From Planctomycetales bacterium (GTDB taxonomy: Bacteria > 4484-113 > JAFGCY01), in assembly GCA_022646745.1 (NCBI GenBank), contig CP060262.1:990001-1022000 (forward strand): a DNA stretch of 32,000 bases. Reading direction: 5' to 3'. The position numbers and the translations under genes were made by a program. The notes beneath the pieces are model-generated. The model saw nothing but the letters and a program-made list of their open reading frames with translations, did no database searches and had not been told where the DNA came from. Positions 5,174-27,488 of this stretch are shown in pieces (the stretch's first letter is position 1; each line of letters begins with the position of its first letter).

Positions 5174-5315
5174 ATCAGTTCTCCAGGGGGGTTCCAGCAG
5201 ACCGGATCATTGACCCGGCAAGTCCGCCATTTCAGAATTTCGCCTTGCTACTCTTCCTCAGCGAGAACGGCCAGCCGCTCTCAGTCGGGCTCCACATGGA
5301 GCACCCCGTGACGGT

Positions 5316-5344
5316 AGTATATCCGACTGCATATAGCCTGTCAA
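5316..5344 (-). promoter_or_regulatory. Sigma70-type promoter for rpmB (-35 TTGACA, 17-nt spacer, -10 TATACT)
   Basis: The minus strand reads TTGACA (5344-5339), 17 nt, then TATACT (5321-5316). This implies a leader of about 135 nt before the rpmB ATG. Confidence 0.6.
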
Positions 5345-16779: not shown

Positions 16780-17391
16780 ATGGAACAGCAGCAGCGCAGG
16801 GTGACACAGAAGGGGCAGCGCGCCAGGAGCGCGCTCGTCGAGGCCGCGCTTGCGGTGTTCTCGAAGAGTGGCTACGGCTCGGCCAGTGTGGCGGACATCG
16901 TGGACAGCGCCGGCCTGACGAAGAACCACCTGTTCTACCACTTCGGCAGCAAGGAAGCGCTGGCGGCGGCGGCACTTGAGCAGTCCCAGACCATCTGGCG
17001 CAATGAGCTCGCCATGCCGGCTGAAGTATTCCCGGACAGTGCACGGCGGCTCGGCTTCTGCATCCGCCGCCTGTCGGAAGGTTCGCTGCAAGGCCAATAC
17101 CGCCTGCTGGCGGCGATGCGGCTGGACCGCTCAGCATTGCCTGAGGAGCTGGCAGCGCAGGTGGATGCCTACGAGAAGGAGCTGGTGGAATTCTGGCGCC
17201 GGCTGCTGAAGGGACTGAAGGGTGAAGGCAGCCCAGCCCCGAAGATGAAGGCGCGAGCGATGGCCACGGCGATCACCTGGCAACTGTGTGGCGCGGCGAT
17301 CGCCGATGACGGGAAGAACGGTATGTTCGCGGCCCAGGCGGCCTTCATCGGCAGCCTGCTGGGGGATGGGGGAGGTCAGCTGTCAAGCTGA
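16780..17391 (+). CDS. TetR-family transcriptional regulator
   Basis: Internal ATG 16780 gives MEQQQRRV...ALVEAALAVFSKSGYGSASVADIVDSAGLTKNHLFYHFGSKEAL (TetR HTH). The upstream part of the track ORF is antisense to mutL. Confidence 0.85.
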   Translation: MEQQQRRVTQKGQRARSALVEAALAVFSKSGYGSASVADIVDSAGLTKNHLFYHFGSKEALAAAALEQSQTIWRNELAMPAEVFPDSARRLGFCIRRLSEGSLQGQYRLLAAMRLDRSALPEELAAQVDAYEKELVEFWRRLLKGLKGEGSPAPKMKARAMATAITWQLCGAAIADDGKNGMFAAQAAFIGSLLGDGGGQLSS

Positions 17392-17395
17392 CAAC
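17370..17395 (+). repeat. Hairpin repeat GGGAG-GTCAGCT-GTCA-AGCTGAC-AAC overlapping the tetR-family stop codon
   Basis: 7-bp stem, 4-nt loop. 24/26 identical to the reverse complement of 19397..19422. Confidence 0.8.
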
Positions 17396-17703
17396 TGCAC
17401 TCAGGTAGCAGAAAGCTGAAAGCAGACCCGGCATGATGAGGCATCGGTAATCGCTGCGCTCGGTTTACTACATGCAATTCGTAAATGTGCTTCAACCACC
17501 AAGGCACTAAGACACCAGGTAATCCTTCACAATACAAGTACCGGCGCGGCCCGGCAGCGCCAACGCGCGTGAAGTAGCGATTGGGCAGGATGCTCCGCAA
17601 GGCAGTTGAATTCGATTTCCTCTCACGCAATTCGCAATTCATACGCAGCATCCCCATGCGTCTTCATATTGAATGTCTTGCTCGCCTGATAACATGAAAT
17701 GGG

Positions 17704-18708
17704 ATGGACAGGAAGCGTAAGTTGTTTGTTCTCGTGGCAAGCGTTGTCACTTTGCTGCTGTCGCTGCTCATCATCAGGAACTTCTATACAGGTGGCAGAA
17801 TCCTGCCTGGAGCCCGATCAAACCCTGATCTGGTACTGGATCTCGGCAATGGCGTGAAGATGGAGTTTGCCAGCATCCCTGCTGGAATCGTACGAATGGG
17901 AGCACCTGACCATGAGAAATTTGGCGATCCTCAGTTTGCTCCGCGTTGGGAGTATGGAGAGCATAATGTTTCTTCCCTTCACATGGCCGTGTTCGAAACC
18001 ACGAACGAGCAGTTCCTCTGCTTCCTGAACAGTGGATATGCTTCCAAGGGCAACTGGAGCCAGGAAGGACTGGAATGGATGAGAGGCAACGGCAAGCTCA
18101 GTGCTCACTTGCAGCGTATCAGCAAACTGGACGGAAGGCTACCGGTAGCCGGGATCAACTTCTACGAAGCCGAAGCATTCTGCAACTGGCTCAGTGCACT
18201 TGCAGCAAAACAGCATGGCCTGTCCGCGAGATTGCCAACAGAAATCGAGTGGGAGTATTGTGCTGAGGGCGAGACTCAGGAAGGTGAGTCGCACCTCTGT
18301 GTCTGGGGAGATGCCAATGGCAACCGGGATATAGACGAGATTGATGCCGGATGGACCAATACCGACTGGAATTTCGGTAGAGACAATGTCAATGGATTGG
18401 CAAGGGGAGGACGCTTCCCACGAGACCTAAGCTGGTGTGGACTTTATGACATGAATGGCAATGTTGCAGAGATTGTTGTGAGTTCCCCCGGAAACCCAAG
18501 ACTGACTCCGCTGAATCCGAACTGGGGGCTTGATCCGATGATCACAAAGGGATACAGGGTTTTCAATACAGGTAACAAGGATTCAATCCAGAGGCAGCTT
18601 GAGGGTCAATGGGAAGTGATGAAGAGTGGATTGATAATTTCCGATTACAGTCTGCACCTAAAGGCAATTGATGCCGGGGGCATAGGATTCAGGGTTGCCT
18701 TGGATTAG
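17704..18708 (+). CDS. FGE-sulfatase (SUMF1/C-type-lectin-fold) family protein with N-terminal TM anchor
   Basis: FYEAEAFCNWLS, GNVAEIV and C-terminal GIGFRVA motifs. TM segment LFVLVASVVTLLLSLLII. GC about 43-53 % on sampled lines versus 63-67 % in neighbours. Confidence 0.8.
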   Translation: MDRKRKLFVLVASVVTLLLSLLIIRNFYTGGRILPGARSNPDLVLDLGNGVKMEFASIPAGIVRMGAPDHEKFGDPQFAPRWEYGEHNVSSLHMAVFETTNEQFLCFLNSGYASKGNWSQEGLEWMRGNGKLSAHLQRISKLDGRLPVAGINFYEAEAFCNWLSALAAKQHGLSARLPTEIEWEYCAEGETQEGESHLCVWGDANGNRDIDEIDAGWTNTDWNFGRDNVNGLARGGRFPRDLSWCGLYDMNGNVAEIVVSSPGNPRLTPLNPNWGLDPMITKGYRVFNTGNKDSIQRQLEGQWEVMKSGLIISDYSLHLKAIDAGGIGFRVALD

Positions 18709-18840
18709 GACTTTGTATTGTCCTGATTAACGTGATGGCGCGAATGACGAGAAGAATACTATCCCGGGTTTTCTGCTTGGTGTCTTGGTGACCTGGTGGT
18801 TCCTTTTACTTCCCCGCGAATCACTCTGCATTTGAATCAT

Positions 18841-18893
18841 CAGCACGCGTGCTGGTGTCGCTAGGCGACACCGCTACTTCATATTGTTGAAGT
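18841..18893. other. Three consecutive hairpins in ORF-free DNA
   Basis: CAGCACGCGTGCTG is a 14-nt perfect palindrome. GTGTCGC-TAG-GCGACAC has a 7-bp stem. ACTTCA-TATTGT-TGAAGT has a 6-bp stem. Confidence 0.7.
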
Positions 18894-19012
18894 GCCTATC
18901 AAGCCAAGGACCGGCGCGGCCCTGCCGCGACTGGGTGGGAATGCAGAGAAGTGCGCATGGCTGACGGGATTGGCAACAGGTATAACGATCTCTGCGCCTC
19001 TCTTCATTCTCC

Positions 19013-19138
19013 GCGCCTCTGCGCCAGAAAAACCAGACTGGCGAGCACGTTGTATCCCGCGCGCCGGCGCGCCGTGAGGTTCACATTCGTTCGGGTGAGA
19101 GTGTGCTAAGCAATTCGGCTCTTCTGGCGCAGAGGCGC
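19013..19138. repeat. 17-bp perfect inverted repeat enclosing 92 nt with a central 14-nt GC palindrome
   Basis: GCGCCTCTGCGCCAGAA (19013-19029) pairs with TTCTGGCGCAGAGGCGC (19122-19138). GCGCGCCGGCGCGC lies at 19059-19072. Confidence 0.75.
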
Positions 19139-19365
19139 TGAGTGAATCCGGAGACGCTGAGGGGATGTAATCTGGCAACGACCCCTGCCTTGCCAGGCTC
19201 GCTTGCTTTTTAACATACAAGACACAGAGAGCACAGAGTTTTGCGGATCTGATTGGCGGGAAGTGGAAATGGCTTTGCGGCACTCCCTGTCAGACGCCGC
19301 GAGGCAGCGCCGGTACGGCACTTTGAATGGAGTGCTAATCACATATCATGGTTTGGCTTCATATG

Positions 19366-19400
19366 CCGAAACCCGAAACCGGAACACCGAAACCCGATTG
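19366..19400. repeat. Heptamer array CCGAAAC x5 (degenerate)
   Basis: CCGAAAC CCGAAAC CGGAACA CCGAAAC CCGATTG read directly. Confidence 0.8.
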
Positions 19401-19448
19401 TCAGCTTTACAGCTGACCTCCCGTTGTCAGACTTTCGTCTGACCTCCC
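19397..19448 (-). repeat. Two tandem 26-nt hairpin repeats (GGGAG-GTCAGAC-GAAA-GTCTGAC-AAC and GGGAG-GTCAGCT-GTAA-AGCTGAC-AAT) directly 3' of the dnaA stop
   Basis: Read on the minus strand. Stems are 7 bp and both loops are GNRA-type. The stems differ by paired (compensatory) substitutions. Confidence 0.8.
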
Positions 19449-19453
19449 ATCCG

Positions 19454-20863
19454 CTACTTCAGCAGGCGGCTGATCTGGGTGACGGTCTGCTCGACGTAGG
19501 GATCCTCCACGATCTCACCGGCGATCTTGTTCGCGCCGTGGCTGATCGTGGAATGGTCGCGGCCGCCGAGTTCGTTGCCGATCTGGCTGAGCGTCAGGTT
19601 GGTGTACTCGCGGGCGAGGTACATCACCACCATCCGGGCCAGGGCCACGCGCTTCGAGCGGTTGGGGCTGAGCAGCAGCTGCTCGCTGACGTTGAAGTAC
19701 TCGCTGACAACGCTGATGATCTGCTTGATTGACAGTTCCTGGCGGAAGCCGCCGGTGTCGATGAAGTCAGCCAGCACGCGTGCTGCGACCTCGACGGTCG
19801 GCGGGTTGTTGCTGATGTCGCAGAAGGCCAGCAGGCGGATCAGCGAACCCTCAAGTTCGCGCACGTTGCTGGAGACCTTCTCCGCGATGAAGGTGCAGAC
19901 TTCCTCCGGCAGCTTGACCTGCTCGGCCTCGGCCTTCTTCTGCAGGATCGCGATGCGGGTCTCGAGGCTCGGCTCATCAACATCGGCTACGAGGCCCATG
20001 CTGAAGCGGGACACCAGGCGGTCCTCCATGCCCTTCAGGGTCCGCGGCGGGCGGTCGCTGGAGATCACGATCTGCTTGCCGTCCTCCACCAGGTGGATGA
20101 AGGTGTGGAAGAACTCGATCTGCGTCTCGGTCTTGCCGGACAGGAACTGGATGTCGTCAATCAGCAGCACGTCGGCATCGCGGTAGCGATAGCGGAAGTC
20201 GCTCATCCGGCCGGTGCGCACATGCTCGATGAAGTCGTTTGTGAATTTCTCGCTGGTGACGTAGATCACATGCGCGCTGTTGTTGCGGCGCCAGATCTCG
20301 TTGCCGATCGCCTGCATCAGGTGCGTCTTGCCCAGCCCGACGCCGCCGTAGATGAACAGCGGGTTGTAGCTCTGGCCGGGATTCTGCGCGACCTGCAGGC
20401 AGCTTGAATAGCAGAAGGTGTTATTGCTGCCGACCACGAAGCTGTCGAAGGTGAAGCGCGGGTTGAGCAGCGGGCGGCGGACGCGGGTCTCCTCGACGGG
20501 GGCGCGGCGCTCCAGCTGCATGCCGCTGCCACGGTCGGAACCGAACTCATGCTCGGCGTCAACCAGCATCGGGTTGGAATCGGTGGGATAGGAAGCGGCC
20601 TGGCTCACGGCGGCGGGGGTAGCCACGCTCACTGTCACCCTGGTCGGACGCCCGAGGATCAGGCTGGCCAGTTCATTGAGCAGATCGGCATACTGGTCGA
20701 GCAGCCAGCCCTTGAGCACCTCATTGGAGATGGTCAGATGCAGGCCATCGGCGTCGATCCCCCTGATTCCGAGGGGACGCACCAGTAGTTCATATTTGGG
20801 ACGAGAGAGCTGCCCGCCTAGCTGCTCCTTCATCATGCTTAGTACTTCTGCCGCACTTGTCAC
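19454..20863 (-). CDS. dnaA: Chromosomal replication initiator DnaA
   Basis: Walker A GGVGLGKTHL, LLIDDIQFL, and C-terminal DNA-binding signature LSQIGNELGGRDHSTISHG. Start set at GTG 20863 (MTSAAEVLSMMKEQL...) because the track start 20911 lies inside a DnaA box. ATG 20836 is an alternative. Confidence 0.92.
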   Translation of the reverse strand: MTSAAEVLSMMKEQLGGQLSRPKYELLVRPLGIRGIDADGLHLTISNEVLKGWLLDQYADLLNELASLILGRPTRVTVSVATPAAVSQAASYPTDSNPMLVDAEHEFGSDRGSGMQLERRAPVEETRVRRPLLNPRFTFDSFVVGSNNTFCYSSCLQVAQNPGQSYNPLFIYGGVGLGKTHLMQAIGNEIWRRNNSAHVIYVTSEKFTNDFIEHVRTGRMSDFRYRYRDADVLLIDDIQFLSGKTETQIEFFHTFIHLVEDGKQIVISSDRPPRTLKGMEDRLVSRFSMGLVADVDEPSLETRIAILQKKAEAEQVKLPEEVCTFIAEKVSSNVRELEGSLIRLLAFCDISNNPPTVEVAARVLADFIDTGGFRQELSIKQIISVVSEYFNVSEQLLLSPNRSKRVALARMVVMYLAREYTNLTLSQIGNELGGRDHSTISHGANKIAGEIVEDPYVEQTVTQISRLLK

Positions 20864-20903
20864 CAGTTTTACCCCGATTGCCCGTGATCCGCAGTTAGGC
20901 GAG

Positions 20904-20954
20904 TTATCCACCTTACAGGAAGGAAATGATAGCAGTTCTCCACAATCGATTCAA
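20904..20954 (-). promoter_or_regulatory. dnaA promoter (-35 TTGAAT, 17 nt, -10 TATCAT) with two DnaA-box-like 9-mers
   Basis: On the minus strand, TTGAAT is at 20954-20949 and TATCAT at 20931-20926. TGTGGAGAA (20944-20936) lies in the spacer and GGTGGATAA (20912-20904) lies downstream. Each box has one mismatch to TGTGGATAA. Confidence 0.6.
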
Positions 20955-20959
20955 TACTA

Positions 20960-21364
20960 TTATGAATCAGCGGGGCGTATCTCGCCGGTCTGGTCGACCT
21001 TGTATTTGCTCCCATCCGGCAGTTCGGCGAAGATCACGTAGAATTTCTGCTCTTCCATCGGTCCGCTGAACTTGATCCCCTCAACCAGCGAGACATCAGA
21101 CTTGAAGCGCAGGTCGAAGCGGTCGCGGATCTTCGGCTCCTCAGCGATCTTGCTGAAGGGTGCATATGTGCCGTAGAGCGTGTAGTACTCCTGCTCCAGG
21201 CTGTTGAGGTAGCCCAGCTGCTGCTTGGCGAAGCTGATGGTGGCTTCCTCTTCGTTCTCATTGAGCGTCGGCAATGCGATGAATATCAGCACGCCGACGA
21301 TGGCCAGCATGATCGCCAGCTCAAGCAGGGTCAGGCCCCGGCGCTCCCAATGGATTTTCAGCAT
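20960..21364 (-). CDS. Type II secretion/type IV pilin-like pseudopilin (prepilin N-terminal cleavage/methylation domain)
   Basis: RRG|LTLLELAIMLAIVGVLIFIALP class III signal peptide. ATG 21364 (alternative GTG 21370). Confidence 0.8.
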   Translation of the reverse strand: MLKIHWERRGLTLLELAIMLAIVGVLIFIALPTLNENEEEATISFAKQQLGYLNSLEQEYYTLYGTYAPFSKIAEEPKIRDRFDLRFKSDVSLVEGIKFSGPMEEQKFYVIFAELPDGSKYKVDQTGEIRPADS

Positions 21365-21398
21365 CCGCACAGCCAGACTTTAACAGCTGCTGGGGGGT

Positions 21399-22349
21399 TC
21401 AGTCCTCTTCCTCGGAAAGATATTCGCGGATGTCGATCGCCGCCGTGGCGCCGTTGCCGGCGCTGATCACCATCTGCTTGAGGCTGCCCTTGATGATGTC
21501 GCCCGCAGCCCAGATGCCCTTGCATGTGGTGCGCATGTGTCCATCCACCACGATGTAGCCTTCCTCGTCGGTGTCGATCAGGTGCGCGGCGAAGTGCGAG
21601 GCCGGCTCATAGCCGATGAAGCCGAACACGCCGTCCGCCCTGAAATCCTCCACCTCGCCGGTCTCGGTATGCTTCAGCTTGACACCGTTCACCGTGCCGT
21701 TTCCGTAGATCTCCTCCACGGTGTAGTTCGTCTTCTCGGTCCAGTTAGGCTTGGAGCGGGCACGGCGCTTGGCCAGCTCGGTGGCCCGGAATGCGTCGCG
21801 GCGGTGCACCAGGGTCACACTCTTGCCGAACTGAGTGAGGAACAGGCCTTCCTGGAATGCGCTCTCACCACCGCCGACCACCACGATGTCCTTGTCGCGG
21901 AAGAATGCACCGTCGCAGGTGGCGCAGTAGCTCACGCCGCGGCCGTAGTACTCCTCCTCACCGGCGGCAGGCAGGCGGCGCGGGGCTGATCCGCAGGCGA
22001 TCACCAGGCTGCGGGCACGGATCTGCTTGCCATCGGACAGGTTCAGGAAGAAGTCGTGGCTGTCCGGCACGCGCTCAACCTTCTGCACATCCTTATAGAG
22101 GATCTCTGTGCCGAACTTCTTGACCTGGGCTTCCATCTTCTGGGTCAGCTCCATGCCGGAGGCGAAGTCCACAGCCGGGTAGTTCTCAACCTCATGCGTC
22201 AGCGCAATCAGGCCGCCGACGAACTGCTTCTCGATGATCAGCGTGGAAAGGTCTGCGCGGGCTGTATACAGGGCGGCCCCCATCCCTCCGGGGCCACCTC
22301 CGACGATCACCACGTCCCAGCGCTTGTTGAGAATTTCCTCGTACTGCAT
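21399..22349 (-). CDS. trxB: Thioredoxin-disulfide reductase
   Basis: VVIVGGGPGG FAD motif, redox CATCDG, NADPH motif VVGGGESA. GGGAGGAG SD upstream. Confidence 0.93.
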   Translation of the reverse strand: MQYEEILNKRWDVVIVGGGPGGMGAALYTARADLSTLIIEKQFVGGLIALTHEVENYPAVDFASGMELTQKMEAQVKKFGTEILYKDVQKVERVPDSHDFFLNLSDGKQIRARSLVIACGSAPRRLPAAGEEEYYGRGVSYCATCDGAFFRDKDIVVVGGGESAFQEGLFLTQFGKSVTLVHRRDAFRATELAKRRARSKPNWTEKTNYTVEEIYGNGTVNGVKLKHTETGEVEDFRADGVFGFIGYEPASHFAAHLIDTDEEGYIVVDGHMRTTCKGIWAAGDIIKGSLKQMVISAGNGATAAIDIREYLSEEED

Positions 22350-23176: not shown

Positions 23177-23881
23177 CTAGGGGTTGATCCAGTCTGTTGT
23201 TTCCGGGTCGCCGCGGAAGCCGGCGAACAGCTGCACCCACTGTTCGACGTGCAGGCCACCCGCGCTGTCGTAGTAGACACCGACCCCCATGTGCGTGAAG
23301 TTGGCATTAAGGATGTTGGCACGGTGGCCGGGGCTGGCCATCCAGGACACGACCACCTGCTGCGGGCTCGACTGGCCGGCGGCGATGTTCTCACCGGCGG
23401 TGTCGTAATAGGCCGTCTGCACGGCATCCATGCGGTCGAAGGGCGAGAGGTTGTAACCCTGGGCCGTATGGCTGAAGTAATCACGCAGGCCCATGTCGCG
23501 GGCATGCGCCTGGGCCACGTAGTCCAGGTGGTGGCTGCGCAGCAGCGGGTTGAGGCCGTAGCGGCCGCGCTCCACATTGGTCAGGCGCAGGATCTCATCC
23601 GCCCAGGCGGCCAGGCTGGCGTTCTGGTAGGCCTCGTCGCTGTCGCCGACCGCGGGCAGGGTATGGTAGGCGTCCTTCAGCCAGCTGGCGGCTGCGCCGT
23701 CAGTGGCCGGGCTGTTGTCAGTGAAGCTCTCGGCCGGCGGGCGCACGAGCGGTGGAATGTGGCTGTTGGAGCCGGAGCTGTTGTCAGTAGCAAAGATCTC
23801 GCCGGTTCCACCACCGCCGCAGGATGCCAGCAGCAATGCCGCCAGCAATGCCGCAGAACCGTTCTTCCATGAATTGTGCAT
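23177..23881 (-). CDS. CAP/SCP (PR-1-like, YkwD-type) domain lipoprotein
   Basis: LLLASCGGGG lipobox. AQAHARDM, GENIAAG and WMASPGHRANIL motifs. Confidence 0.85.
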   Translation of the reverse strand: MHNSWKNGSAALLAALLLASCGGGGTGEIFATDNSSGSNSHIPPLVRPPAESFTDNSPATDGAAASWLKDAYHTLPAVGDSDEAYQNASLAAWADEILRLTNVERGRYGLNPLLRSHHLDYVAQAHARDMGLRDYFSHTAQGYNLSPFDRMDAVQTAYYDTAGENIAAGQSSPQQVVVSWMASPGHRANILNANFTHMGVGVYYDSAGGLHVEQWVQLFAGFRGDPETTDWINP

Positions 23882-23973
23882 GCTGTCGTTCCAGGGGTTT
23901 TATTCGCTGACCAGATACTACCTGCCCGCAAGCGGACTGTCGGTGACACTTAAGCCCGATTTGAACGGGGACT

Positions 23974-24696
23974 TCAGGGAAGCAGCCAGACGTGCGCATC
24001 CGGGTCGCCGTTGAAGCGCGCGAACACCTGCACCCAGTAGATGTTGTAGGGACCGCCGCCGGCATCGTAGTAGCAGCCGATGCCGACATACTCATAGTTG
24101 TCATGCAGGATGTTGGCGCGGTGCCCGTCACTGTTCATCCAGGTGCTCATCACGGCCTGCGGGGTCTGCTGGTTGCCGGCGATGTTCTCGCCCATGAAGT
24201 TGTAGGGGGCGGGATCAATCGCATCAAGGCGGCCGACGTAGTCAATCCCGTAGCCTTCGGTGTCATGGCTGAAGTAGTCGCGCAGCGCCATGTCGCGGGC
24301 ATGGGCCTGGGCCAGGTTGTCAAGGTCAGTGCTGCGCATCAGTGCCGGCTTGCCGGCGGTTGCGCGCTCGTTGTTGGTGATGCCGAACACGCTGTCAGCG
24401 TAGGCCATGAGCGAGCTGTTCTGGTAGGGGCCGTCTGCATCGCCAACTTCCGGCAGGGTGTGGTAGGCGTCCTTCAGCCAGGAGGTGACGTTGTCATCAC
24501 TGGCCGGGCTCATGTCCTGGAAGGTCTCGACCGGCGGGATGGTCAGGCCGCCGCCGTTGTTGCCGCCGCCTCCGCCGTTGTTGTTGCCACCACCCGGGGG
24601 AGGAGTTGTCGTACCGCCGCCGCCACAGGCGGACAGGCAGCTCAGCAGCAGTACGGCGATCAGGGCCAGCAGGGCGTTCATTGCGCGGATGGTCAT
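23974..24696 (-). CDS. CAP/SCP domain lipoprotein, tandem paralog with a G/N-rich linker
   Basis: LSCLSACGGGG lipobox, GGGNNNGGGGGNNGGG linker. AQAHARDM, GENIAGN and WMNSDGHRANIL motifs. Confidence 0.85.
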   Translation of the reverse strand: MTIRAMNALLALIAVLLLSCLSACGGGGTTTPPPGGGNNNGGGGGNNGGGLTIPPVETFQDMSPASDDNVTSWLKDAYHTLPEVGDADGPYQNSSLMAYADSVFGITNNERATAGKPALMRSTDLDNLAQAHARDMALRDYFSHDTEGYGIDYVGRLDAIDPAPYNFMGENIAGNQQTPQAVMSTWMNSDGHRANILHDNYEYVGIGCYYDAGGGPYNIYWVQVFARFNGDPDAHVWLLP

Positions 24697-24850: not shown

Positions 24851-24995
24851 AATAGTGGTCAGTAATCAGTGGTCAGTGTTCAGATGGAAGCAGTTTGCAG
24901 AAACAGAAGCAGCAGACTCGATCTGTCTGCTTCCGGAGAACCAGACCTGATTCCCATACTGCTTCTGCCAGCCTGCCTGACCACTGACCACTATT
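24851..24995. repeat. Opposed heptamer arrays forming an imperfect long hairpin of about 145 nt immediately 3' of rtcB
   Basis: AATAGTGGTCAG (24851-62) pairs with CTGACCACTATT (24984-95). TGGTCAG (24870-76) pairs with CTGACCA (24977-83). Internal pairs are GGAAGCAG/CTGCTTCC and GCAGAC/GTCTGC. CAG spacing in the left arm is mostly 7 nt. Confidence 0.7.
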
Positions 24996-25008: not shown

Positions 25009-26277
25009 TCAGTCAATGGCGTTGTCGCCACTCTTGAGCGTGATCACCGGCTGCAGGCGGTGCACGATCTTCACGAGGTCTCTCTGGCGGGCCATCACCT
25101 CGTCAATGTCCTTGTAGGCCTGCGGTGCCTCATCGATGCAGCCGCTGTCAGCCAGCGTGAAGGTGCCAGCCAGGCTCTGCTCCATGTCCGCCGTGCTGAA
25201 CTCACGCTTCGCCTGGGTCCGGCTCATCGCGCGGCCCGCACCGTGGCTGCAGGAGTGGAAGGAGTCGGCATTGCCAAGCCCCTCCACGATGTAGCTCGCG
25301 GTACCCATGCTGCCCGGGATGATGCCCGGCTGGCCGGCCCGCGCAGCGGTGGCTCCCTTGCGGTGCACCAGCACGTTCCTGCCGAAATGGTTCTCCATCG
25401 AGGCGAAGTTGTGCGGCAGGTTGAGCATGCGCTCCTCCTTAAACTCCACATCGAGTGCGCCGAGCGCGCCGCGCAGCATCTCCTTGCGGTTGAACAGCGC
25501 GTACTGCACCGACCACTGCATGTCGGCCAGGTAGTCCCGGCCATCCTCGCTGTCAGTCGGCAGCCAGTTCAGGCTCGGCGGGGCCTCGCTCTTCCACTGT
25601 GCATTCAGCTCACGCGCCCGGCGGTCGTAGTGACCCGCGAGGCGCAGGCCGATGTTACGCGAGCCGGAGTGCACCATGATCCAGACGTTGCCATCCTCGT
25701 CACGCTGCGCCTCCAGGAAGTGGTTGCCACCGCCGAGCGTGCCCGCCTGGCGGACCAGCTGCTCATGCAGGGAACGGAACTTGCGGCCCGGTTCGAGCTG
25801 GCCGGCGGCCCGCGGCTGCTTGTGCCAGTCCTCCGAGCCGAAGTGCTCGACGGCACGCTGTTCACGCTCCGGACCGCCACGGTTGCCCCGGCGGTCCCGC
25901 TCGTGGCAGGAGAAGCCGACCGGCACCGCCTCAGCGGTGCGGCTGAGCCAGCCCTGCCAGAAGGCACGCGTTGCCATTTCGCCCTCGAACTTCAGCCCGG
26001 TGTTGACGGCCGCCATCCCGCAGCCGATGTCCACTCCGACGCAGTTCGGCACGACGGCGCCATCAAGCGCCATCACGCTGCCGACGGTCGCGCCCTTGCC
26101 ATAGTGGCAGTCCGGCATGATCGCGAGGTGCCGGTAGAGCTGCGGCATGGTTGCCATCTTGCGGATCTGCTCGGCCGCGCTGCCCTCGATGGCAGCCGGG
26201 TCAGCCCAGCTGCGGGCGAAACGGCCGTTGCCGCAGTCGATCACCTGGTGGGTTGAAACATGTCCCATGGTCTCCAT
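25009..26277 (-). CDS. rtcB: RNA 3'-phosphate/2',3'-cyclic phosphate-5'-OH ligase RtcB
   Basis: GGGNHFLE, HSGSRNIG, GSMGTASYIV and SCSHGAGR motifs. ATG 26277 is preceded by AAGGA. The track start 26307 is a TTG. Confidence 0.93.
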   Translation of the reverse strand: METMGHVSTHQVIDCGNGRFARSWADPAAIEGSAAEQIRKMATMPQLYRHLAIMPDCHYGKGATVGSVMALDGAVVPNCVGVDIGCGMAAVNTGLKFEGEMATRAFWQGWLSRTAEAVPVGFSCHERDRRGNRGGPEREQRAVEHFGSEDWHKQPRAAGQLEPGRKFRSLHEQLVRQAGTLGGGNHFLEAQRDEDGNVWIMVHSGSRNIGLRLAGHYDRRARELNAQWKSEAPPSLNWLPTDSEDGRDYLADMQWSVQYALFNRKEMLRGALGALDVEFKEERMLNLPHNFASMENHFGRNVLVHRKGATAARAGQPGIIPGSMGTASYIVEGLGNADSFHSCSHGAGRAMSRTQAKREFSTADMEQSLAGTFTLADSGCIDEAPQAYKDIDEVMARQRDLVKIVHRLQPVITLKSGDNAID

Positions 26278-26512
26278 TTCGTTTTCCTTATAACTTGTCT
26301 CAATCAATTCCGTGCACGAATCATGATTGTCATGTTGATCCCGCCTTTTCGCAACTGCGGGAGATGTTGGTTCAGCGCGACCCGGTGAAACTTGCTTTCA
26401 CCGCAGCGCCAGTCCGAAGAGCGCTTGCGCGAATCGGAAAAACACACAAGCGTTGGTGGGGTGTCTAGTGGTGCGGTCTGCCGGCTGGTGTCGTCCTGCT
26501 CAGGACAGCCGG

Positions 26513-26596
26513 CTATCTATCGAGGAGATATCGGAGTATGGCCGACCCGGATTGCCGCACTGCACATGGCTTGCTGTTTCGCTTCACTACTTTCAT
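26513..26596 (-). CDS. Candidate 27-codon small ORF (MKVVKRNSKPCAVRQSGSAILRYLLDR) in the rtcB upstream region
   Basis: GGAGG (26607-26603) lies 6 nt before AUG 26596 and about 40 nt downstream of the consensus promoter. The stop codon forms the base of the 26480-26513 hairpin. No homology recognised. Confidence 0.3.
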   Translation of the reverse strand: MKVVKRNSKPCAVRQSGSAILRYLLDR

Positions 26597-26642
26597 GCTG
26601 CACCTCCGGGTGGAATATCCCCGCCATTGGCAGGGTCGAGGG

Positions 26643-26670
26643 ATTATACCCGTGATTCAGAAGTTGTCAA
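26643..26670 (-). promoter_or_regulatory. Perfect-consensus sigma70 promoter (TTGACA, 16 nt, TATAAT) pointing toward rtcB
   Basis: On the minus strand, TTGACA is at 26670-26665 and TATAAT at 26648-26643. This is the best promoter match seen in the window. Confidence 0.7.
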
Positions 26671-26754
26671 GCAAACGGGGGATGAGTTTTGCGGGATGGG
26701 GGATGAGGGAGGGAACAGGGAACCGGGATCAGCAGAAGCGGCTGCAAGCCGCTG

Positions 26755-26833
26755 TTGTCAGAATTCAGTGGTCAGTTTGCAGAAAGCAGTTGGCAGTTCC
26801 AATAACTGCAACCAGCAACCTACTCCCTGCAAC
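26755..26833. repeat. Opposed heptamer arrays: (NNNNCAG)x6 then (CTGCAAC-like)x4
   Basis: TTGTCAG AATTCAG TGGTCAG TTTGCAG AAAGCAG TTGGCAG has an exact 7-nt period. The right arm CTGCAAC CAGCAAC CTACTCC CTGCAAC follows. The TCAGTGGTCAGT..TTTGCAGAAA core is shared with 24866-24905. Confidence 0.8.
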
Positions 26834-26837
26834 CTGG

Positions 26838-27488
26838 TTAACGGCTGCTGAGCAGGGTGCGCTTGATGTCGAGGTAGTAGCGCTTCTTGAGCGTGGGCTT
26901 CAGCATGTCCGCCGTGGCGAACAGCGGGGCCGGGTTGCAGACCGCGCTCGACAGCTTGCGCTGCATCTGGTTGGCAATGCCGTAGTCCATCGCCGGGCAG
27001 CTTTCATCGCTGGTCGGGTAGTCCATTTCCTTCAGGCGGTCCACCGCCAAGCCGAGCATGTCTGAGTCGCGCCGGTAGTAGGCGATGTGGCTCATGCGGC
27101 TGGCGAGGTAGCCGCCCTCCCAGCCCTCGATGCGGGTGAAGGGTTCCAGCGTGTCCAGCCCGCTTTCACCGCTGGCGGCGATCACGTAGCGGCGCAGGCC
27201 TTCCTCGTACTCCGTCTCGGAATAATCCTGGTTGTTCTGGGCCGCCTGGGCGCAGAGCAGCTTGACGTAGTCGCCGCCGACGATGTCGCTGACCTGGCAG
27301 ACCGTGGCCAGCACCTTCCAGTCGGAGGGGCCGAACAGGCGCACGGTGGGCAGGCGCGGGATGGCGAGGTGGATCAGCTTTCCCATCAGGCGGAAATCGA
27401 AGAACACGTGCGGATTCGCCGCGAGATCGATCATCTCGAAGGTGAAATAGAAGTTGTGCAGGGGGTTCCTGTCGTTAGCTGATCCCAT
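26838..27488 (-). CDS. Hypothetical cytoplasmic protein (216 aa)
   Basis: ATG 27488 is preceded by GGGAGGAG 5 nt upstream. No signal peptide and no recognised domain. Confidence 0.65.
   Translation of the reverse strand: MGSANDRNPLHNFYFTFEMIDLAANPHVFFDFRLMGKLIHLAIPRLPTVRLFGPSDWKVLATVCQVSDIVGGDYVKLLCAQAAQNNQDYSETEYEEGLRRYVIAASGESGLDTLEPFTRIEGWEGGYLASRMSHIAYYRRDSDMLGLAVDRLKEMDYPTSDESCPAMDYGIANQMQRKLSSAVCNPAPLFATADMLKPTLKKRYYLDIKRTLLSSR

Follow-up and report, generated by a model that had tools for sequence, protein, structure and literature searches.

A conserved leader with a small open reading frame upstream of rtcB in a locus without RtcR: a candidate leader-peptide attenuator

How might the gene of an RNA-repair ligase be controlled where its known regulator is missing? 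RtcB is widespread in bacteria, and to our knowledge the regulation of rtcB is understood only where RtcR and sigma-54 are present, its switching elsewhere being largely unknown. The question is raised by the rtcB gene in a 32-kb stretch of DNA from a Planctomycetales bacterium (contig CP060262.1, positions 990,001 to 1,022,000; this whole stretch is called the window, and coordinates without a prefix refer to it). An original prediction, made from the DNA letters and their open reading frames (ORFs), had placed in the gap upstream of rtcB a consensus promoter, a small ORF (sORF) led by a Shine-Dalgarno (SD) sequence and a hairpin-rich leader of about 360 nt, and had offered two explanations: that rtcB is controlled through a leader peptide or attenuator, or that the region is a small RNA (sRNA) or micro-protein gene in its own right. 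The comparative data favour the former and leave the latter less favoured. We put at about even chances the reading of this gap as a translated cis-regulatory 5' leader of rtcB, that is, an upstream ORF (uORF) or leader-peptide attenuator, possibly Rho-dependent.

In E. coli and Salmonella, rtcBA is under the control of RtcR and sigma-54 and responds to damaged tRNA (PMC7790460, PMC9650030). The enzyme regulated in the window is the same and the logic presumably so, with RNA repair induced upon damage to tRNA or ribosomes; unlike that system, the window has a sigma-70 consensus promoter and lacks a sigma-54 site, RtcR, RtcA, Rsr and Y RNA. The original prediction had noted the lack of rtcR, rtcA and a TGGCAC-N5-TTGC element, and both the domain scan and the site scan agree. 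No RtcR, RtcA, Sigma54_activat or RTC domain was found by Pfam in the 19 window ORFs taken into the scan for neighbours and regulators, and with up to two mismatches TGGCAC-N5-TTGCW has no minus-strand site in 26278-26840 (15 matches in the whole window versus 23 expected). Pfam and Rfam scans found no Rsr and no Y RNA in the window. Control here, if any, would lie in cis at the RNA level.

The leader, the sORF and rtcB are all on the minus strand, so that the RNA runs 5' to 3' towards lower window coordinates. Its parts are as follows.

26670-26665 and 26648-26643, minus strand: sigma-70-type promoter, TTGACA-16 nt-TATAAT, 12 of 12 consensus bases (sequence scan).
A26636, minus strand: predicted transcription start, placed from the promoter position.
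26635-26619, minus strand: P1, 5'-terminal 7-bp hairpin CCCUGCC-AAU-GGCGGGG (folding).
26613-26542, minus strand: P2, long imperfect helix in which the SD/AUG region pairs with sORF codons 10-18 (folding).
26607-26603, minus strand: SD sequence GGAGG of the sORF, 6 nt ahead of the AUG at 26596.
26596-26513, minus strand: sORF of 27 codons plus UAG (26515-26513), peptide MKVVKRNSKPCAVRQSGSAILRYLLDR (ORF reading).
26530-26514, minus strand: P3, small hairpin of the last sORF codons, ending on the A of UAG (folding; weak).
26513-26480, minus strand: P4, two-tier GC-rich 7+5-bp hairpin whose first base is the G of UAG (folding).
26479-26446, minus strand: C-rich, G-poor tract, candidate Rho-loading site of the Rho utilization (rut) type (composition).
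26445-26278, minus strand: distal leader in its long form, containing several hairpins and AAGGA, the SD sequence of rtcB (sequence comparison).
26277-25009, minus strand: rtcB, 422 amino acids (Pfam RtcB, 4.3e-108, bearing out both the predicted identity and the AUG at 26277).
24931-24911, minus strand: terminator-like hairpin with a U-rich tail after rtcB (terminator scan).

Four lineages carry this element. Besides the window they are L007, a metagenome-assembled genome (MAG) labelled UBP7 HKST-UBA03; L006, MAG AC1.30, represented by a contig of 2304 nt; and L165, the sole diverged copy, which is 5'-truncated, its contig beginning inside P1 so that the promoter is not included and P1 cannot be scored. 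Their RtcB orthologues are 90%, 87% and 82% identical to that of the window, respectively. Among the matches listed, the only close RtcB proteins of species-representative genomes are those of L007 and L006, almost all others being at 47% identity or less, while L165 and a graded series at 65% identity or less came from a protein search with RtcB. An RtcB identical to the window copy was also found on short metagenome contigs.

The original prediction hinged on conservation of the region in relatives and on an intact sORF frame at orthologous loci. Between the window and L007, the stretch from the -35 box to the end of P4 (26670-26480) carries 5 substitutions in 191 nt (97.4% identical), whereas rtcB is 88.6% identical and its four-fold sites only 73.5%; the region is thus conserved far above neutral. 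Upstream of the -35 box the two sequences are unalignable, and downstream of about 26472 the sequence is replaced. In the comparison with L006, promoter to P4 is 4.7% diverged, the following 34 nt (26479-26446) 29%, and the remaining 168 nt to rtcB 4.2%. A 29%-diverged stretch between two blocks diverged by 4-5% argues for purifying selection and against a recent recombination tract. L165 is 55% identical to the window over the core.

The element is also tied to its gene. In each of the four lineages, whose RtcB proteins are at least 82% identical, it immediately precedes rtcB, and the flanks differ: the upstream neighbour is a 216-amino-acid gene in the window and L007 and a reverse-strand 134-amino-acid ORF in L006, where the element occupies 2020-2230, continues into L006:1-114 and is then followed by rtcB. 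Synteny is kept in L176 and L171 (216-amino-acid protein 94% and 88% identical), and both element and rtcB are missing there. RtcB relatives at 59-65% identity (L166, L167, L169, L170, P0009) have gaps of 16-174 nt without the element, and the upstream sequence of L168 (P0013) is unrelated. An nhmmer profile and a covariance model found no further copy in 176 loci (1.1 Mb), which include more than 150 rtcB loci from many phyla, and viral contigs and plasmids gave no match to the element. In total, the element is missing from upwards of 160 distant rtcB loci. On these four sequences, the element appears restricted to the lineage.

The promoter fits the original prediction, both hexamers being perfect with a spacer of 16 nt. 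It is the sole 12/12 match in the 32 kb, where by our own estimate about 0.01 would be expected by chance per 64 kb of strand, and the second best (11/12) lies ahead of rpmB. The promoter scan gives it as the single promoter-like site within 1 kb, and it is kept in all three lineages where the stretch is available, L007 and L006 being identical bar one spacer base. Nothing of at least 9/12 was found by the same scan on the minus strand between 26636 and rtcB, and a separate rtcB promoter was rejected for that reason. A stress gene placed behind a promoter stronger than that of rpmB suggests control after initiation. The gap itself, given originally as 530 nt, measures 560 nt from the upstream stop codon (26838-26840) to the rtcB AUG. 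Antisense ORFs of 87-175 amino acids on its plus strand were rejected, as they extend into flanking sequence that L007 has replaced or that cannot be aligned with it.

The sORF stands where it had been predicted, with GGAGG 6 nt before its AUG, and it looks translated, judging from its SD, AUG and UAG and from a frame that is kept in L165. GGAGG is conserved in 4/4 lineages at 6-8 nt ahead of the AUG (8 nt in L165). The L165 sORF has 25 codons (peptide MFAVKRNYASLLRCLRLPVYPLLDR) in the same frame, 6 nt shorter and with the same end, GAUAGAUAG, so that the frame is intact across 45% divergence and a 6-nt change of length. The motifs VKRN and LLDR-UAG are common to both despite that divergence, with three wobble-only changes in VKRN and synonymous changes in LL. 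In frame 0, 11 of 26 residues are identical and no stop occurs, whereas the other frames give 5/23 and 4/23, with stops; shuffling of the alignment columns returned P = 0.004 for identity combined with openness, a figure that refers to the one diverged copy. The rarest Arg codons, CGA (codon 6) and AGA (the last codon), are invariant in 4/4 lineages.

Such a frame could also serve a product. The sORF might encode a functional basic micro-protein, for example one binding RNA or RtcB, as the first gene of an sORF-rtcB operon whose hairpins set mRNA stability or translation level. The conservation of frame, SD, VKRN and LLDR with synonymous changes would suit it, as would the inheritance of the sORF jointly with rtcB and the presence of one promoter and no terminator between the two. 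We nevertheless consider it unlikely. In the comparison that gives 82% identity for RtcB, the peptide reaches about 40%; within the close clade synonymous sites are frozen, and SD and AUG are buried in structure. Few stretches of the window have worse codon usage, which is odd behind its strongest promoter: an index resembling the codon adaptation index (CAI) is 0.25 for the sORF, whereas stretches of 26 codons from genes of the window have a mean of 0.66 and a first percentile of 0.29. The peptide matches no Pfam family at E up to 0.01, a search in which short peptides give little power. A micro-protein would also leave unexplained the C-rich tract and a conserved untranslated spacer of 90-230 nt.

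Two observations on short peptides stand apart from this argument. A likeness of the window peptide to the N-terminus of bL36 (MKV..K.C) was judged coincidental, since it is missing in L165. In another lineage, a 59%-identical rtcB is preceded by a different SD-led sORF of 30 codons (MRYSPRYLQPCARVSWLLPLRTFRQGTVPV; L169:1652-1744), which sits in a 174-nt divergent-promoter gap. Its peptide and that of the window have only P10-C11-A12 in common, which may be chance or may hint at a wider occurrence of uORFs ahead of rtcB.

The hairpins listed by the original prediction (at the stop codon, at the 5' end, at the SD/AUG and two in the distal part) are all present, and comparison places the first three in a common architecture. 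All four sequences fold alike into P1-P4, with P1 left aside in truncated L165. In the RNAalifold consensus of these rtcB-upstream regions 95% of cells pair, and six pairs show double compensatory changes, all of them in L165; slid alignments gave 0-2 such pairs and none of 500 shuffles reached six. P1 shows one change only among the three close copies, in its loop (A>U in L007). The predicted stem UGCA(G)CAUG/CAUGUGCA proved to be a portion of the longer P2 helix, which buries SD and AUG (pairing probability mostly >0.9 in 4/4 sequences) and contains four of the pairs with compensatory double changes in L165. P3, of 5 bp in the window and 9 bp in L165, is weakly suggested by one compensatory pair. 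P4 has a folding free energy of -17.7 kcal/mol in the window, and of -17.7 to -19.2 kcal/mol across the four sequences, in all of which it abuts the stop codon; at pair 7 the window has U-A, L006 C-G and L007 C.A, and one double change occurs in L165.

Conserved structure of this kind raises the alternative that the 160-nt block is a structured non-coding RNA, either a riboswitch-like leader that binds a ligand or protein or a stand-alone sRNA ending at P4, in which the ORF is incidental or weakly translated. Nearly all nucleotides are conserved within the close clade, loops, linkers and synonymous sites included, and to this one may add the four-helix architecture with its compensatory changes, close-copy ORF changes that are all non-synonymous, the low CAI and a perfect promoter of the sort typical of abundant small RNAs. 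Several results oppose this alternative, which we regard as improbable. Translation is favoured by the frame signal in L165, by the restriction of changes in VKRN to wobble positions and by a conserved distance from SD to AUG, and the element was never seen apart from rtcB in the 176 loci, rtcB having no second promoter. Taken as a whole, the 367-nt leader shows no unusual folding stability (z = -1.5). P4 is without the U tract that this organism uses for termination (for example at 4952-4928), and P4 was rejected on that ground as an intrinsic terminator ending an sRNA or small gene. The Rfam check proposed for the gap yielded no known RNA and no family to assign: no covariance model matched at gathering thresholds in the 32 kb, and with E up to 10 over 26100-27000 the best hit (E = 1.8) was chance-like. 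A tRNA/transfer-messenger RNA (tmRNA) search found none.

A translated leader that acts as an attenuator would need a point of decision beyond the sORF, and the stretch directly behind P4 is a candidate. Its 15 C and 4 G in 30 nt (C-G = 11) rank in the top 0.9% of 30-nt windows on the minus strand, and the best 78-nt window after P4 has a C/G ratio of 1.8-2.0 in 4/4 lineages. Composition is kept in all four while the sequence drifts (29% from L006), the signature expected of a Rho-loading site. When a ribosome is modelled over codons 9-21, the SD strand is released and, in the window, L006 and L165 but not in L007, forms pairs with the C-rich tract, which is suggestive only.

Further downstream the leader is variable. 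The distal leader has no promoter-like or terminator-like site on the minus strand by scanning. It exists in a long form (window and L006, about 190 nt after P4) and a short form (L007 and L165, about 90 nt), the short form sharing only its first and last stretches with the long one and being without a segment of about 120 nt. This segment holds the hairpins GGUGAAA-GCAAG-UUUCACC (26402-26384) and CCCGC...GCGGG (about 26361-26340), so that of the predicted hairpin-rich leader every hairpin exists, but these two (26402-26384 and 26362-26341) do not belong to the conserved core because L007 and L165 lack them. Occlusion of the rtcB SD was considered and came out inconsistent among folds. Leader form is discordant with the rtcB tree: L006 has the long form of the window, yet its rtcB is closest to that of L007. 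Short forms contain a hairpin with compensatory changes (UUCCGU-GACG-ACGGGA in L007:3919-4000, UUCCGC-GACG-GUGGAA in L165:140-229), and a UUCCG motif is common to both forms.

At a larger scale, promoter, leader, rtcB and terminator behave as one cassette of about 1.9 kb, as judged from the joint presence or absence of element and rtcB and from the repeats that bracket them. Three flanking features are relevant here.

26754-26783, minus strand: upstream copy of a 30-nt direct repeat, 83% identical to 24855-24884.
24855-24884, minus strand: downstream copy of the repeat (repeat comparison).
26737-26753, minus strand: hairpin AGCGGCU-UGC-AGCCGCU followed by UCUGCU (read from sequence).

The 30-nt repeat brackets the unit from the promoter to the terminator-like hairpin after rtcB, and a CACTGACCACTGA-like 13-mer occurs at only these two sites in 32 kb (0.06 expected). 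In L007 the repeat around the rtcB unit is another one, about 80 nt long (L007:3560-3700, 5255-5340). The hairpin at 26737-26753 is a possible terminator of the upstream 216-amino-acid gene, which would insulate the leader promoter. A strong promoter with a fortuitous ORF and hairpins riding on a recently exchanged rtcB cassette, its conservation due to recent transfer, would accord with the flanking repeats, the presence or absence of the unit among close relatives and the mosaic distal-leader forms, but is very unlikely given a 34-nt tract diverged by 29% between 4-5% blocks in the same pairwise comparison, an rtcB diverged by 11% right up to its start codon, and an architecture and frame that survive in the 55%-identical L165 copy.

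Conservation above neutral, a surviving frame and gain or loss jointly with rtcB therefore favour the cis-regulatory leader. As we envisage it, a constitutive sigma-70 promoter of maximal strength would fire at about 26636, and the first 160 nt of the transcript would fold into P1-P4, with P2 burying the SD and AUG of the sORF and the UAG placed at the P3/P4 junction. Behind P4 would follow an unstructured C-rich, G-poor tract. By default, untranslated RNA past the sORF would let Rho load, or the transcript would otherwise end or decay, before rtcB. Ribosomes slowed or arrested on the sORF, with the rare codons CGA and AGA and the conserved end, LLDR-UAG, as candidate stall points, would cause the leader to refold, and transcription or translation would proceed into rtcB. 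The gene would thus be induced by damage to the translation apparatus, with neither RtcR nor sigma-54.

A number of observations weigh against the attenuator. The element is known from four lineages only, three of them nearly identical, and the evidence from covariation and frame all rests on one diverged, 5'-truncated copy. Within the window/L007/L006 clade bases are near-frozen, yet identity to L165 is 55%, a pattern that a simple leader-peptide model does not explain. Of the sORF changes that separate the three close copies, 3 are non-synonymous and 0 synonymous, which leaves the peptide as such without a sign of being under selection, and the low CAI fits non-coding sequence, although it fits a deliberately slow regulatory ORF as well. 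On the side of termination, the C-rich tract is only about 30-35 nt long, and Rho is assumed for the lineage, the window being without a rho gene. P4 is followed by AGACCGCACCAC in place of a U tract and the terminator scan flags no canonical terminator there on this strand. No clear antiterminator was found in the leader; the pairing of SD strand with C-rich tract is missing in the L007 model, and whether the rtcB SD is paired varies from fold to fold.

The proposal has precedents. Comparable uORF or leader-peptide sensors are tnaC-tnaAB, speFL-speF and PA5471.1-armZ, and as in tnaC and speFL the C-terminal residues and stop codon are the best-kept part of the peptide. With the classical amino-acid attenuators trpL, hisL and pheL the leader shares a leader ORF, hairpins that overlap its end, a strong promoter and rare or regulatory codons, but it has no run of a single codon, no U-tract terminator and no clear 1:2/2:3/3:4 alternative helices. 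In E. coli, the uORF of toiL-topAI senses translation stress and gates Rho-dependent termination (PMC12121999). Like members of this class, the window has a short SD-led ORF in a long 5' leader behind a constitutive promoter, RNA structure that may be tied to ribosome position, a C-rich untranslated stretch downstream and a target that handles translation-related stress. In contrast to them, it shows no sequence homology, its target is an RNA ligase and a strong hairpin begins on the stop codon; unlike in topAI, the ribosome-binding site of rtcB is not clearly occluded, and Rho dependence and stalling are here only proposed. Literature searches turned up no description of an rtcB leader peptide or attenuator. 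If the reading is true, it would provide a new regulatory route that ties RNA repair directly to translation status through a self-contained cassette of about 1.9 kb, a compact and portable stress-responsive module, and would add a candidate family of uORFs or arrest peptides, found in a lineage about which little is known (L007 being labelled UBP7). With its consensus sigma-70 promoter and GGAGG SD, the module is open to tests in E. coli, its own hosts being uncultured.

The attenuator reading can be carried further, with correspondingly less confidence. The leader might be an RNA-level replacement for RtcR that senses damage to the translation machinery, the sORF stalling when ribotoxins cut tRNAs or the ribosome and the ligase then being made; we regard this as a rather long shot. 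Invariant positions of the sORF are Lys-Arg-Asn near the start, Asp-Arg-stop at the end and the Arg codons CGA and AGA. Anticodon nucleases attack tRNAs of the same kinds, with PrrC acting on Lys, colicin D on Arg and colicin E5 on Asn, Asp and Tyr. The sORF would then be a 'hungry-codon' detector of tRNA breakage. In a bolder variant, the conserved fold may bind a small ligand, for example a 2',3'-cyclic nucleotide.

The surroundings of rtcB are themselves of some interest. Neighbours in the window are two unknown proteins, a B3_4 protein, TopA, two CAP-domain proteins and a TrxB-like protein. Directly downstream of rtcB lie two tandem paralogous CAP/SCP-domain genes (23177-24696), then a conserved protein of about 205 amino acids with no assigned function and the TrxB-like reductase, a block that is syntenic in all relatives whether rtcB is present or not. 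The slot between the 216-amino-acid gene and the CAP-domain genes is a variable hotspot. In the window and L007 it is occupied by the rtcB cassette, in L006 by the cassette together with a 134-amino-acid reverse ORF, and in L171 (2980-4995) by two unrelated reverse ORFs; in L176 (4652-4726) there is nothing but a 76-nt gap. The L006 contig (1-2304) is circularly permuted, its 3' end …GCGGTGAAAGCAA running into its 5' end GTTTCACCG…. This is likely an assembler collapse of the flanking direct repeat, about 80 nt long, that is seen around the rtcB unit in L007, with a real circle or tandem copy as a possible alternative.

Short repeats are a further feature of the intergenic DNA. Right after the stop of the 216-amino-acid gene, window 26770-26836 (minus strand) contains clustered GGTTGCAG-like octamers in both orientations, and TCCGGAG/C-like motifs follow the same stop at L007:3395-3460. 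Heptamer arrays of GGTCAGT / ACTGACC occur between genes in the window (for example at 24860-24990) and in L007. These short repeats and arrays may be elements of the lineage resembling repetitive extragenic palindromes (REP-like).

Two other regions of the window deserve mention. On the minus strand, a promoter TTGACA-17-TATACT (5344-5316) precedes a leader of about 140 nt, a 64-codon ORF (5173-4979) and a U-tract terminator (4952-4928). This promoter-terminator pair (5344-4928) was rejected as an sRNA gene, since its ORF reads as ribosomal protein bL28 (rpmB); the long rpmB leader, which matches no Rfam family, could be an autoregulatory ribosomal-protein leader. Finally, dnaA (19454-20911, minus strand) adjoins the part of the window with the lowest GC content (0.52-0.57 at 17-19 kb) and a place where GC skew rises, and the region 17000-21400 is possibly the replication origin region.

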